A stretch of DNA of 64,000 nucleotides from a virus (Duplodnaviria; Caudoviricetes), in IMG/VR virus record IMGVR_UViG_3300021256_001754, positions 96,001-160,000 of that record; one strand, written 5' to 3'. Each line of letters starts with the position of its first letter. The stretch's first letter is position 1. Under the pieces are notes generated by a model. That model worked only from the letters and a program-made list of their open reading frames with translations, made no database searches and had not been told where the DNA came from. The position numbers and the translations under genes are program-made. Of the stretch, positions 21,037 through 48,895 are shown piece by piece.

Positions 21037-21112
21037 TTATTCTACCTCCGATTATTAAAATTGTTAAAGAGTTCTGTATAAAATATATTTTTGATAATTC
21101 TCTTAACCGCTT

Positions 21113-46288: not shown

Positions 46289-46321
46289 TATTTTATTCTC
46301 TATGGTTAAAATACCGTAGAG

Positions 46322-46405
46322 AATATTTATTGTATAGTAAGCTCTTATATAAGATACCCCCTTAATCTGATAATGGTGGTATATGATAGCTTCAGAAATA
46401 TACAC
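46322..46405 (-). repeat. Inverted copy of an internal segment of the Bro-N gene
   Basis: Reverse complement matches 48328-48389 and 47978-48012; peptide YQIKGVSYIRAYYTINI vs YQISGVSIQELYYTINI. Confidence 0.8.
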
Positions 46406-46440
46406 TAAGATTCTTTTTTTTTTTTCGATATATATTTAAT

Positions 46441-47184
46441 GATGAGCTTACTGGCAATAGCACAGCTGGTTATCATAATGCTAAATATAGGAATAAAGAT
46501 TTAGGTACGATAACAGCTGGTAATAGAGATGCTTGGGTTCAAACCTATGTAAATGGTGGTAATTTTGAAGCTTTTGTTGGTGACGAAGTTACTATACAAG
46601 ATGGTGTTTATAATGCTAAATGGTTGGTAGCAGGATGTGATACTGAGTTGAATAAAGGAGATACCGCTTTAACAACACATCATGTTAGCTTGATTCCAAA
46701 AACACATTTATTTAGTGCTAGAATGAATAGCTCTAATACAACAGCAGGTGGTGTAAAGGGATCAGAAATGGTCACATCTACATTGCCAGCTTTAGCAACA
46801 ACTCTTAAATCTGCTCTTGGTAATAGACTTCTTGAGAGAAGAGTTTTGTACAGTAAGGCTGTTGATACATCAGCAGTTTCACAGTATTCTAAATGGACAG
46901 GTATGGCTTCCGATTGGGAATGGTTTAGCGCTTACTGTAGTTTGTTATCAGAAGTACAAGTTTATGGCTCTATGGTGTTTGGTGGTCCATACGATATAGG
47001 AGAGGCTTCACAGCAGTTACCGATATTTAAATTTATCAATTTTATAAATTACAGTCGTTCCCTCTTCTGGCTTCGTGGTGTCGCGAGCTCTACGGATTTC
47101 TGTCGTGCCAGCGGCAACGGCATTGCCGACTACACCAGCGCTTCCGCTTCCAATGGTGTTCGCCCGCTCATAACTGTTGGATGA
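46441..47184 (+). other. Start-less tip cassette K: DGR-target-type C-type-lectin (DUF6273-like) domain with variable region
   Basis: AAT-GAT-GAG start, 247 open codons (DELTGNSTAGYHNAKYRNKDLG...FWLRGVAS...ASASNGVRP); GC-rich 3' VR-like tract about 47060-47180. Confidence 0.8.
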
Positions 47185-47298
47185 TGAATGACAGCGTAGC
47201 TTAATGCGGAGCTGGAAATTCATCATCTGCACATATTTATTTTGATAACTTATAGATGAGAAATAAATATTTTTGCTGGCGGAATTCCGCCAGCAAAA
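47180..47298 (+). promoter_or_regulatory. DGR-type hairpins downstream of VR
   Basis: GATGATGAAT...ATTCATCATC inverted repeat (47180-47227) and perfect 28-bp palindrome TTTTGCTGGCGGAATTCCGCCAGCAAAA (47271-47298). Confidence 0.7.
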
Positions 47299-47311
47299 GA
47301 AAGAGGTAAAT

Positions 47312-47590
47312 ATTGCTGTTCCTAAAAGTAAACGTGGCGAGTCTAAATTAATGTATTATTACTATTCTTTAAGACTTACTGATGCTATAACTATGTTTCT
47401 TATGAAAGATTTTGGAATGAAAATGCACACCAAAGATATCCAAACAGCAACATATAATGCAAAAATGAGCAAAGAAGATACTACCGCATTTAAAAATATC
47501 TGTGGTAGATATGGTATCGATGTGGTTGTTAATTATCCAAATTGGTTAATGGATAATTTTCGCAATATGATACTTGCCGATCTTGATTAA
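47312..47590 (+). pseudogene. avd: Truncated Avd-like (four-helix bundle) DGR accessory gene
   Basis: (M)AVPKSKRGESKL.YY...L...IT..L.KDFG...YPNWL; ATT where ATG is expected after GAGG; truncated. Confidence 0.6.
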
Positions 47591-47610
47591 AATTAACAGA
47601 AACTGGAGCA

Positions 47611-47925
47611 TTGATTAGAAAAGTAAATTCAGAAGTATTTAGAAGAGAGTATAAAAGAATAAACAATTTTAGAATATTGCTGGATAAAGGTAGACTTAGT
47701 TTAAAAGATATTAGAAATTGTTATTTATCGTGGAGAGGAACATATTCTAAATTTGATTCTGGATATGATATATTAGATATGGATTTGTATTTTAGATATA
47801 TTTTTAATCTAAATAAAAATTTTGAATTACCAGAAGATATAGATAAATCTAAAAAGAAGACGAAAACAGATAAAAAGAAAATATATAGAAATAATTTTTA
47901 TAACGAACCAGGAATCAATTGCTAA
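47611..47925 (+). pseudogene. C-terminal fragment of a DGR-type reverse transcriptase
   Basis: RREYKR...LLDKGRL...DIRNCYLSWRG..SKFD....DMDLYF matches RT C-terminal end; no YxDD domain present. Confidence 0.65.
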
Positions 47926-48103
47926 TATAGTAGAATTCTCTTCTACTATATTTGTAAATAAATATAAAAAGTATATACATATACCCCCATCACCCAGATT
48001 AAGGGGGTATCTATACAATCACTATATTTGTAAATAAATACATGACTACCAACAAACTAGTATAAAATACAACATAATTGGTGTAATTAAGGAGGAATAT
48101 AAT

Positions 48104-48895
48104 ATGAACAACACACCTATTTGTCCAATTTATTTTGAGAATCATGAGTTTGGTGGTCATCTCTATAGTATTGAGAATTTTACAAACTTTAAATTTGGTT
48201 GTATAAGAACAACTATTCTTAACGGTAAACCTTACTTTTCCGCTAAAGATATTTGTAGAGGATTATGTCTCGACACAGATAATGTTTCTAGATTTGTTTC
48301 TGAAGCTGTCAATGATTTGGGTATGTACATATACCCTCCTTACCAGATTAGTGGGGTATCTATACAAGAGCTGTATTATACAATAAATATCGAAGTAACA
48401 CATCCAGGTAATAATGGCTGTCAAGTTAAACAAACGGTACAAACGTTATTTATTTCTGAACCTGTTTTATACATGCTAATATTTAGATCTAGAAAGAAAG
48501 ATGCTGTTGGGTTTAAAGCTTGGTTATCTGTAGAGATACTTCCTAATCTTAGAATTTTAGGTAGAGAAAGAGCAGCTTCTATTATAGCTGACGAAACTAA
48601 TGCTATGAGAAAGGCAGTAGCAGAAATCAGTAATAAATATGATAAGCTTGAGCATATGGCTGAAACAACAGGTCTTATATTTAGCAGTGTTATGGAAGTT
48701 ATTGATAAAGAACGTAGAGATCATAGTGTGGAAGCCTCTATAATAGATTCTAAGATTAAAGATCTAATTATTAGAGTTGATTCTATTGGTTGGAATAGTA
48801 GTGAGCTTATCAATGGACAGATGGACTTAGCTCAGAAAATAAATGGTATAGCATCTGGATTAGATATGATATTCGGTGGTAGAAGAAGTGCATAA
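48104..48895 (+). CDS. Bro-N domain protein
   Basis: FGCIRT..LNGKPYFSAKDIC..L; ISEPVLYMLIFRSRKKDAVGFKAWL..EILP. Confidence 0.88.
   Translation: MNNTPICPIYFENHEFGGHLYSIENFTNFKFGCIRTTILNGKPYFSAKDICRGLCLDTDNVSRFVSEAVNDLGMYIYPPYQISGVSIQELYYTINIEVTHPGNNGCQVKQTVQTLFISEPVLYMLIFRSRKKDAVGFKAWLSVEILPNLRILGRERAASIIADETNAMRKAVAEISNKYDKLEHMAETTGLIFSSVMEVIDKERRDHSVEASIIDSKIKDLIIRVDSIGWNSSELINGQMDLAQKINGIASGLDMIFGGRRSA

Follow-up and report, generated by a model that had tools for sequence, protein, structure and literature searches.

How does a phage reading frame of 247 codons that lacks a start codon come to lie in front of the remains of a DGR, and is it still of any use to the phage? Two ways are known by which phages anticipate changes in their receptors, diversity-generating retroelements (DGRs) and tail-fibre switching, and each has been described on its own. 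In the window studied here (the whole 64,000-nucleotide stretch of phage DNA that was analysed), the frame in question, cassette K, had been taken in the original prediction for a DGR target followed by a collapsed DGR without a template repeat (TR). Homology, fold, deletion mapping and a genome-wide search all uphold this description. In our view, K probably represents the receptor-binding tip of a DGR variable protein, stored among some 22 start-less tip cassettes that are led by TGATGA in a PBS1/AR9-like jumbo phage of the gut, with the wreck of its own DGR still attached.

Cassette K (46441-47184, + strand) consists of 247 codons plus a stop; measured against a complete DGR variable protein, it covers the C-terminal two thirds. 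Its frame runs without interruption from 46390 to the stop at 47182-47184. The 5' end has neither an ATG nor an RBS and opens as T-GAT-GAG at 46440, and a scan for sigma-70-type promoters 5' of K gave nothing exceeding the shuffled background. The ATGs within AATGATGA were weighed as starts for leaderless or frameshifted translation, an idea that was set aside: that frame ends after about 20 codons, and both differences between the window and L005 in K's opening codons are synonymous in K's own frame. A DNA search with 46390-48100 against 50,697 phage records gave no match, and a single protein query found no relatives of K in viral contigs. K is 53-56% identical to the C-terminal part of the targets of other phages' intact DGRs (55.5% identity with residues 94-338 of the L006 target, E = 2e-89; the alignment with residues 122-373 of the L015 target begins at 46435). 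Moreover, K and the remnants behind it are colinear with the target-accessory-TR-RT loci of L003, L006, L015 and L016; the intact loci come from Acutalibacter phage Fontainebleau (ON453893), a contig of GCA_963646685.1 (L015) and the metagenomic L006 and L016. This colinear homology to the target, accessory and RT genes of intact DGRs identifies the locus as a former DGR.

According to its structure model (pLDDT 93.9), the K product is a receptor-binding tip with a C-type-lectin fold, in which the variable region (VR) occupies the C-terminal strands. Foldseek returned no PDB match for K at E <= 0.001, and the fold matches came from an exhaustive aligner. The top match is the N-terminal domain of the T. 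ramosa IgA peptidase (9qa6_A; Z 12.6, rmsd 3.1 over 173 residues); TvpA (2y3c) follows with Z 6.0 and rmsd 4.3 over 134 residues, and C-type lectin domains, more than 40 in number, score Z 4.2-5.8. Of the CLec/DUF6273 fold expected for K, the model bears out the first part, whereas the DUF6273 profile stays below its cut-off (E = 0.025; 14.9 bits for a cut-off of 23.5, over the C-terminal 56 residues only). The intact relatives score equally low with this profile.

The GC-rich end of K, which had been described as VR-like, aligns with real VRs and TRs. This VR (47062-47166, + strand) has a G+C content of 61%, compared with 37% for the remainder of K and 32% for the genome, and can be aligned, column by column, with the VR/TR pairs of the intact DGRs in L006, L015 and L016. 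Start-less K is present in four related lineages (that of the window, L005, L008 and L017), and among their VRs 28 of the 29 columns that are A in the L015 TR are variable, compared with four of the 76 other columns (p = 4e-20). The VR variation gives the same result when the L006 or L016 TR is taken as reference, and A occupies 0 of 76 invariant VR columns. In the intact relatives, all TR/VR mismatches lie at TR adenines (14/14, 18/18 and 20/20). The dN/dS ratio of the VR is 2.2-2.8. Variation at TR-adenine positions thus shows K to be a DGR target by descent. The 3' end of the VR (47161-47181, + strand), at the IMH-like position, is invariant and of the VR type: CGCCCGCT is found in all seven aligned VRs and CGCCCGAT in the three TRs of the intact relatives. 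This VR-specific, IMH-like end and the hairpin behind the VR would, as read from the DNA, likewise be those of a former DGR.

Both of the hairpins noted earlier behind K are confirmed. In hairpin 1 (47180-47227, + strand), a 10-bp outer stem pairs the stop TGATGA of K (47182-47187) with TCATCA (47220-47225). Its sequence is almost identical in L005, L008 and L017. With an inner part of 28 nt, it differs from its short-looped counterpart in the Bordetella phage DGR. A scan for the conserved hairpin 1 sequence found none in metagenome contigs, and also missed L008, a known JGI relative, so that negative scans of this kind carry little weight. Hairpin 2 (47271-47298, unstranded) has a 12-bp stem, a 4-nt loop and T and A runs beside it, and is terminator-like on the minus strand. 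For the 161-nt hairpin stretch the folding energy is -30 kcal/mol (z = -6.15), a stability reached by 0 of 200 shuffled sequences.

The next element, the Avd-like accessory remnant (47312-47590, + strand), retains codons 1-92 plus a stop, preceded by an RBS (AAAGAGG, 47300-47306). The fragment 47312-47587 is 45% identical to residues 1-88 of the L006 accessory protein (E = 2.7e-25) and also matches residues 1-91 of that of L016 (E = 7e-23). Met1 of the accessory protein aligns with the ATT at 47312, whereas the sister lineages L005 and L008 have ATG; the change of start is confined to the window lineage. The claim of an Avd-like N-terminal half with ATT in place of ATG therefore holds by homology and position, but not by profile: Pfam and NCBIfam gave no match for the fragment or for its intact relatives in L006 and L003. 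The intact L006 protein is modelled as a four-helix bundle (pLDDT 83), whose best PDB matches are Avd-family chains: the ten best Foldseek rows comprise 2rld, 2gsc and 4dwl, then 8ube and 8ub7 (probability 0.96-1.0, E = 0.02-0.3). The predicted bAvd-like four-helix bundle coded between target and TR is thus that of L006 and not of the window fragment, in which helix 1, the insertion and the beginning of helix 2 are all that survives. The label 'Avd-like' rests on the locus position and this predicted fold.

The last element is the DGR reverse transcriptase remnant (47590-47925, + strand), with about 80 codons of the RT C-terminus (47590-47835) followed by a lysine-rich tail of about 30 codons. 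It matches residues 341-421 of 423 of the L015 RT (52% identity, E = 2e-23) and residues 323-394 of 402 of the L006 RT (E = 1.9e-14), with a sub-threshold match to phrog_1423 (E = 1.2e-3). A C-terminal RT remnant joined by a deletion had indeed been proposed. We mapped the joint to 47576-47592 (+ strand) from the end points of the tblastn matches and alignment to intact relatives; here, accessory codon ~92 (frame 2) meets RT codon ~322 (frame 1). The missing stretch is about 1.46 kb as judged from L006 and about 1.7 kb from L015, and takes in everything from the accessory gene beyond codon ~92, through the TR, to RT codon 322. The absence of a TR, remarked for the window, holds for all 249,585 bp of the genome: elsewhere, 47060-47180 has no ungapped match better than 52/121, blastn of the region against its own genome finds the region itself only, and RVT_1 has no match in the genome. 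This genome thus has neither of the two components of a functional DGR, an RT gene and a TR matching the VR.

We may wonder at this stage whether a DGR of a co-infecting phage, a prophage or the host still diversifies the VR of K. The original prediction had offered cassette swapping layered on adenine mutagenesis supplied in trans, of which one part stands, namely that adenine mutagenesis has hit a start-less cassette. Supply in trans would suit the intact VR, its VR-type 3' end and hairpin 1, which are nearly invariant between lineages, and the A-type VR differences found in four lineages although two of them provably have no RT. We nevertheless hold it to be highly improbable. Besides the 250-kb genome without RT or TR, pattern scans for VR/TR matches found none in viral contigs, metagenome contigs and 185,579 species genomes; the TRs of the nearest intact DGRs mismatch the VR of K at many non-A columns; and the VR is identical across at least five independent assemblies of the window lineage and across two of the L005 lineage. 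ENA ERZ12302812, with about 200x coverage, is one of the samples that contain the phage.

The order of events can instead be read from the related lineages. As their four VRs differ almost only at TR-A columns, the DGR diversified K when K was already start-less. The accessory gene is readable in three lineages, each with its own lesion: start loss in the window, a stop at codon 44 in L008 and a cut after codon 53 in L005. These separate lesions, together with a genome devoid of RT and TR, indicate that the DGR is now dead. The L005 deletion spans the joint of the window, a point that the L008 and L017 contigs do not reach; had RT and TR been lost once, in a common ancestor, the VR differences would demand another source. 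Finally, the two remnants have the low G+C content of the resident genome (31%, and 23% for the RT remnant) and the DGR was active within the phage clade, so the element did not arrive recently in a dead state. The earlier idea of a tip captured together with downstream DNA is only partly sustained: the colinearity with intact loci and the left edge at TGATGA in L008 agree with it, but the base composition and the past activity speak against such a recent arrival.

K has TGATGA at both ends, as had been noted. The 5' core (46440-46445, + strand) is read in K's frame as T-GAT-GA (N-D-E), and the second (47182-47187) is the double stop of K, which is TAATGA in L008. Whether homology starts at 46441 had been raised as a check: that between L008 and this genome begins at the TGATGA at 46440, and nothing 5' of this core in L008 matches the present genome. 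In L012-L014, homology breaks exactly at TGATGA at other cores. An extra gene 5' of K in L005 was examined as a further TGATGA-bounded cassette and discarded, as it has its own RBS, ATG and terminator. TGATGA (26 copies versus 111 expected) and TCATCA (two versus 60), counted on the + strand, are the most avoided hexamers of the genome, in sense and antisense alike, an avoidance that is absent from L006, L015 and L016. The cores thus number 26 on the + strand and two on the - strand, where one is the stem partner in the hairpin of K and the other leads the lone minus-strand tip. Among the + strand copies, 22 of 26 lead open GAT-frame stretches of at least 36 codons. K, itself a start-less + strand frame opening at T-GAT-GA, is the longest, with 247 codons compared with 36-129 for the others.

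At the protein level, the first residues of K coincide exactly with the LN(D/N)D joint that fuses this fold to an N-terminal anchor in other phages. Seven proteins read anchor-LNND-K-like, two of them (L015 and L016) within intact DGR loci, and the present phage encodes a homologue of their anchor as its own fibre anchor (genome positions 85705-86055). The head formed by promoter and anchor has T(G/A)ATGA as its left edge in three different upstream contexts, and one anchor (100% identity) is fused after NDD to different tips. Inverted sites flanking alternative ends, as in a shufflon, were not found.

Could K simply be an inert fossil, a 5'-truncated DGR target decaying along with its DGR, whose open frame and TGATGA edges have no present function? 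The adjoining DGR parts are clearly dead, no start codon, RBS or convincing promoter lies upstream, and neither a protein search nor a junction pattern scan of viral contigs showed K joined to the head. We judge this reading unlikely, however, because K outside the VR is under purifying selection, with dN/dS of 0.15-0.41, the first 61 codons included. Part of this low dN/dS could be inherited from an earlier, differently expressed state. Moreover, the 247 codons have stayed open in all four lineages at 32% G+C, whereas the 92 codons of the accessory gene have variously lost their start, acquired a nonsense codon and suffered a deletion, and K is cut exactly at the joint of the natural fusions and at a hexamer otherwise purged from the genome. 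The same 61 codons bear on whether K is a stand-alone gene with an internal start, for instance the TTG at 46624, as the 178- and 186-residue products given by gene callers would have it. This is scarcely credible: the codons before the TTG share the low dN/dS, include an in-frame indel of 4 codons in L008, belong to the domain in the model (pLDDT 95-98) and align with full-length targets.

Under the preferred reading, of K as a start-less tip cassette, K would be used through in-frame joining to the promoter-plus-anchor head, itself a unit with T(G/A)ATGA cores at its borders and with varying genomic surroundings among relatives. A head docked at 46440 would create an ordinary target-accessory-TR-RT operon, which would account both for the presence of a DGR at this place and for its decay after the head had come to stay elsewhere. 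A candidate for the joining enzyme is the single Xer-like tyrosine recombinase (genome positions 222219-223253) of the genome, in which resolvase and Y1 transposase were sought and none was found; a scan of viral contigs for the 5' UTR of the head gave no hit. More specifically, we tentatively propose, as a possibility that we rate somewhat below even, that a mobile head of about 0.5 kb (promoter, RBS and 117 anchor codons) docks site-specifically before any of about 22 tips, and that at K it re-creates a DGR operon in which the tip could also be hypermutated. If so, K would be the first DGR target switched on and off by moving its 5' half, and the dead DGR would record the outcome of the head staying away.

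The locus can be compared with several known systems. It shares with the prototype BPP-1 DGR (mtd-avd-TR-brt) the order target, accessory, TR and RT, a C-terminal VR in a C-type-lectin fold, a four-helix-bundle accessory protein, adenine-specific variation, the difference between the VR and TR 3' ends and a hairpin after the VR. Unlike BPP-1, this locus has lost its TR, most of its RT and half of its accessory gene; the target has neither its N-terminal part nor a start codon, and the accessory protein has an insertion of about 40 residues and is missed by Avd profiles. The intact DGR loci of Firmicute phages have homologues of all three parts (36-56% identity for the target, 36-45% for the accessory protein and 36-52% for the RT tail), share the VR scaffold with K and, in L015 and L016, have anchor-LNND-K-like targets. 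Yet these loci are complete, their targets are ordinary genes with their own N-terminus, and TGATGA is not avoided.

Shufflons and invertible tail-fibre segments (R64 Rci/sfx, Mu Gin, P1 Cin, p15B Min and the Bifidobacterium prophage Rin; PMC6109161) also join a constant N-terminal part in frame to alternative receptor-binding ends at short sites. They invert between inverted sites in a compact locus, whereas here direct repeats make up 22 of the 23 tip sites, which lie scattered among essential genes across about 60 kb, with a core of just 6 bp, and the movable piece appears to be the promoter-plus-anchor part. Neisseria pilE/pilS and Borrelia vlsE/vls likewise keep promoter-less, start-less cassettes away from a single expression site, but use homology-driven gene conversion, whereas the exchange points here are sharp, at a 6-bp core without flanking homology. 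Integron cassettes (IntI, attI x attC) are also promoter-less, in one orientation and with a short core, and the Xer-related tyrosine recombinase of this genome adds to the parallel. By analogy with the R'' and R' boxes of attC, the 3' core of K may be seen as lying in a hairpin with its own complement. Integron cassettes are whole genes, each with an attC, whereas here protein parts are fused in frame and the hairpin is present at K only.

In the literature searched, neither a library of tail-fibre tips without start codons nor a DGR target kept as a silent cassette is described. A DGR variable protein within a library of start-less tips would mean that swapping and hypermutation have acted on the same receptor-binding module, and the tip-library hypothesis for this phage gains here its first evidence from selection. 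The natural anchor-LNND-tip fusions fix the joint at the protein level. K is, in addition, a natural example of DGR loss in which the order of decay can be read from the remnants.

Cassette K (window 46441–47184) is a start-less frame of 247 codons that opens as T-GAT-GAG at 46440; no stop interrupts it between 46390 and its own stop codon (47182–47184). Its 5′ end has neither an ATG nor a ribosome-binding site, and gene callers place its start at an internal TTG (46624). Two hairpins lie 3′ of the stop, at 47180–47227 and 47271–47298, and the 161-nt stretch there folds with a z-score of −6.15 compared with shuffled sequences. They are followed by an accessory remnant frame (47312–47587), which is preceded by AAAGAGG and has ATT at the expected start position, and then by a reverse-transcriptase (RT) remnant frame (47590–47925). 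The original prediction had described these parts, together with the GC-rich variable region (VR) of K, and was accurate in every detail. Its main claim, that K is a DGR target followed by a collapsed DGR with no template repeat (TR), is also right, given the colinear homology to intact loci of other phages and the lack of an RVT_1 match or a second VR copy in the genome.

A protein of Acutalibacter phage Fontainebleau (ON453893) is 36% identical to K (E = 2e-33), and downstream of its gene come a gene for 184 aa, two 94-nt repeats with 80% identity to each other and an annotated reverse transcriptase. A search of a 5.8-billion-protein collection returned 77 relatives of K, the contigs of which include three intact DGR loci: L006, which lies on a phage contig of 201.5 kb; L015, on a contig of 52 kb from NCBI assembly GCA_963646685.1; and L016. 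Every TR/VR mismatch in these loci is at a TR adenine (14/14, 18/18 and 20/20, respectively); they are DGRs of the working type. K aligns with residues 94–338 of the L006 target (46459–47181; 55.5% identity, E = 2e-89) and with residues 122–373 of the L015 target (46435–47181; 53% identity). The accessory remnant (47312–47575) corresponds to residues 1–88 of the 181 of the L006 accessory protein (45% identity, E = 2.7e-25) and to residues 1–91 of that of L016, and the RT tail (47593–47835) to residues 341–421 of the 423 of the L015 RT (52% identity, E = 2e-23) and to residues 323–394 of the 402 of the L006 RT. The deletion can be mapped against these loci: the two remnants, which are in different frames, are joined within 47576–47592, and everything from the middle of the accessory gene through the TR to RT codon 322 is absent, about 1.46 kb as measured on L006 or about 1.7 kb on L015. 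No RVT_1 match and no intact RT were found in the whole 249,585-bp genome, which is rated complete and of which the window covers bases 96001–160000. Nor does the genome contain a second VR copy or a TR (ungapped matching reaches 52/121 at best, and blastn recovers nothing but the region itself), and pattern scans of viral contigs, metagenome contigs and species genomes found no matching TR or VR.

Four known lineages carry K: that of the window, which also occurs as a 249,578-bp contig identical across 46300–48110, and the related lineages L005, L008 and L017 (92, 93 and 94% nucleotide identity to the window, respectively). In all four, the start-less K opens at the identical core, TGATGA. 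Outside the VR, K is 92–95% identical with a dN/dS of 0.15–0.41, a range that also holds for the 61 codons upstream of the gene callers' TTG, and in the VR dN/dS exceeds 2. The columns that vary among the four VRs comprise 28 of the 29 at which the L015 TR has an adenine, compared with four of the 76 others (Fisher p = 4e-20); none of 76 invariant VR columns is an A, and the picture is unchanged with the L006 or L016 TR as the reference. At the 3′ end, all VRs read CGCCCGCT and all TRs CGCCCGAT. Since the variation is almost only at TR-adenine columns and no invariant A is left, the differences between lineages bear the signature of adenine mutagenesis, made after the cassette took its present start-less form. 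The proposal that cassette swapping is layered on adenine mutagenesis holds for the past, while the supply of mutagenesis in trans that it invoked found no support. A dead DGR is by itself the ordinary decay of a known element; by the literature searched, what is new is a DGR target kept as a start-less cassette that is under selection and was hypermutated when it was silent.

Judged from its sequence, the DGR of K is now dead. The accessory gene carries a different lesion in each of three lineages: the start is ATG in L005 and L008 and ATT in the window, codon 44 is a stop in L008, and L005 is cut past codon 53 and joined directly to a 115-nt stretch, 75% identical to window 47893–48010, that corresponds to roughly the final nine codons of the RT frame. 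At least five contigs (NCBI, ENA, Logan and JGI) encode an identical K product of the window lineage, and two an identical product of the L005 lineage. The data fit a single loss of the RT and TR as well as several. In L005, about 1.2 kb (L005:5479–6725) stands in place of window 47473–47949, replacing the RT tail; it holds one more start-less frame led by TGATGA (L005:6378; 97 codons), which is preceded by a terminator and a CGATA motif, an arrangement also seen ahead of K.

The genome has a G+C content of 32%, and the large RNA-polymerase subunit of the phage is distantly related to those of PBS1/AR9-group jumbo phages of Firmicutes. The VR tract (47062–47166, the last 105 coding bases ahead of the invariant end) reaches 61%, compared with 37% for the rest of K. 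The accessory remnant (31%) and the RT tail (23%) resemble the resident genome, and the intact relatives are at 42–58%. The K-DGR element has long resided in low-G+C phages and was not recently captured as foreign DNA. The original prediction that the tip (the C-terminal receptor-binding part) was captured together with downstream DNA agrees with the colinearity and with the left edge at 46440–46441; it is wrong if taken to mean the import of an element that was already dead.

The model of K, built on an alignment of 44 relatives, has a pLDDT of 93.9 and a pTM of 0.91. Exhaustive structural comparison gave as the best match the N-terminal domain of the Thomasclavelia ramosa IgA peptidase (Z = 12.6, r.m.s.d. 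3.1, 173 residues). This match, of K residues 34–247 with residues 32–283 of 9qa6_A, is by far the top one; from the model, phage DGR tips seem to have a lectin-like module in common with a surface protease of a gut Firmicute. The predicted CLec fold is borne out by TvpA, the DGR variable protein of Treponema denticola (Z = 6.0, 134 residues), and by more than 40 C-type lectin domains (Z = 4.2–5.8); the Pfam DUF6273 match is under threshold. The accessory protein matches no Pfam or NCBIfam profile. For the intact L006 protein, the model (pLDDT 83) shows a four-helix bundle in which helix 1 is followed by an insertion; its ten best Foldseek rows are 23S-rRNA-IVP/Avd family chains (2rld and 2gsc) and BPP-1 Avd (4dwl), with the Avd subunits of a DGR ribonucleoprotein (8ube and 8ub7) just below. 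The label 'Avd-like' thus holds by predicted fold and by position, not by sequence profile. Three Avd-like accessory proteins of other phages (P0100, P0102 and P0103 in alignment A4) are extended at the C-terminus by a stretch containing C-P-I-(S/I)-F.

Under a maximal-order Markov model, no hexamers in the genome fall further below expectation than TCATCA (two copies, 60 expected) and TGATGA (26 copies, 111 expected). They are avoided in both gene orientations (seven versus 119 in sense, one versus 24 in antisense), which points to a signal recognised as DNA, and to an enzyme reading the 6-mer at this level, with a recombinase or restriction-like activity. The hexamers are not avoided in L006, L015 and L016. 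Frames of at least 36 codons follow 22 of the 26 plus-strand TGATGA copies in the GAT frame, one of the remaining four being K's own stop. Copies of the avoided hexamers in the window are, for example, at 21112, 21966, 22298, 22643, 24936, 30171, 33005, 37124, 38514, 39937, 46440 and 47182. The TGATGA of the K stop pairs, across 47182–47225 in the first hairpin, with one of the two TCATCA copies of the genome, resembling the paired core and inverse core of integron attC sites; in L008 the K stop is TAATGA, with one mismatch in this stem. The other TCATCA (genome 53002), the only further minus-strand core, leads a minus-strand tip (53006–52668) that is 53% identical to the tip of P0125, the anchor of which is 100% identical.

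The anchor, the N-terminal part of the expressed fibre gene (genome 85705–86412), is found at 100% identity joined after N-D-D to unrelated tips (P0105 and P0125), and at 96 and 82% identity with other tips again. In relatives L012 and L013, homology to the genome stops at core 86055 and restarts at 93519, with a second break in L012 at core 94014; L014 has the head, then four other tips, then DNA found at 119 kb in this genome. The head (genome 85537–86060; L011:2538–3061) is about 0.5 kb of promoter, 5′ UTR, ribosome-binding site and 117 anchor codons, with TGATGA as its right edge and a sharp left edge at TGATGA (85543 in this genome) or TAATGA (L012 and L014). In relatives the head is followed by different tips and preceded by one of three neighbours, so it may itself be the movable piece. 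The sole tyrosine recombinase of the genome (222219–223253; L010:994–2028) is Xer-like (best NCBIfam model XerA/integron integrase, E = 9e-62), and no resolvase or Y1 transposase was found in the genome; the recombinase is a candidate for the TGATGA reaction, or may simply resolve dimers.

In L008, homology to this genome starts at the core of K, and nothing upstream of the core is similar; the alignment with the L015 target begins exactly at the L-N-N-D motif. Seven natural fusions (P0006, P0016, P0019, P0020, P0025, P0037 and P0043) consist of an anchor homologue (34–38% identity), L-N-N-D and a K-like domain (48–58% identity). We infer that the head could dock at K. Docking at 46440 would give an anchor-N-D-E-K protein of about 364 residues, comparable in size to these natural DGR targets (367–384), and would restore the canonical target–accessory–TR–RT order. 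No head–K junction was found by protein search or by a junction pattern scan of viral contigs. An insertion hot spot (46385–46415) lies between the upstream terminator and the T-run of K; L005 has an extra gene of 134 aa there and L017 a different one of 223 aa, both having a ribosome-binding site and terminator of their own, and the window has neither gene. The K-DGR block is flanked in inverted orientation by copies of a short repeat containing a G5/C5 hairpin (46322–46385 and 47950–48040); this repeat occurs several times in L005 and may represent either a family of terminators or a small mobile element.
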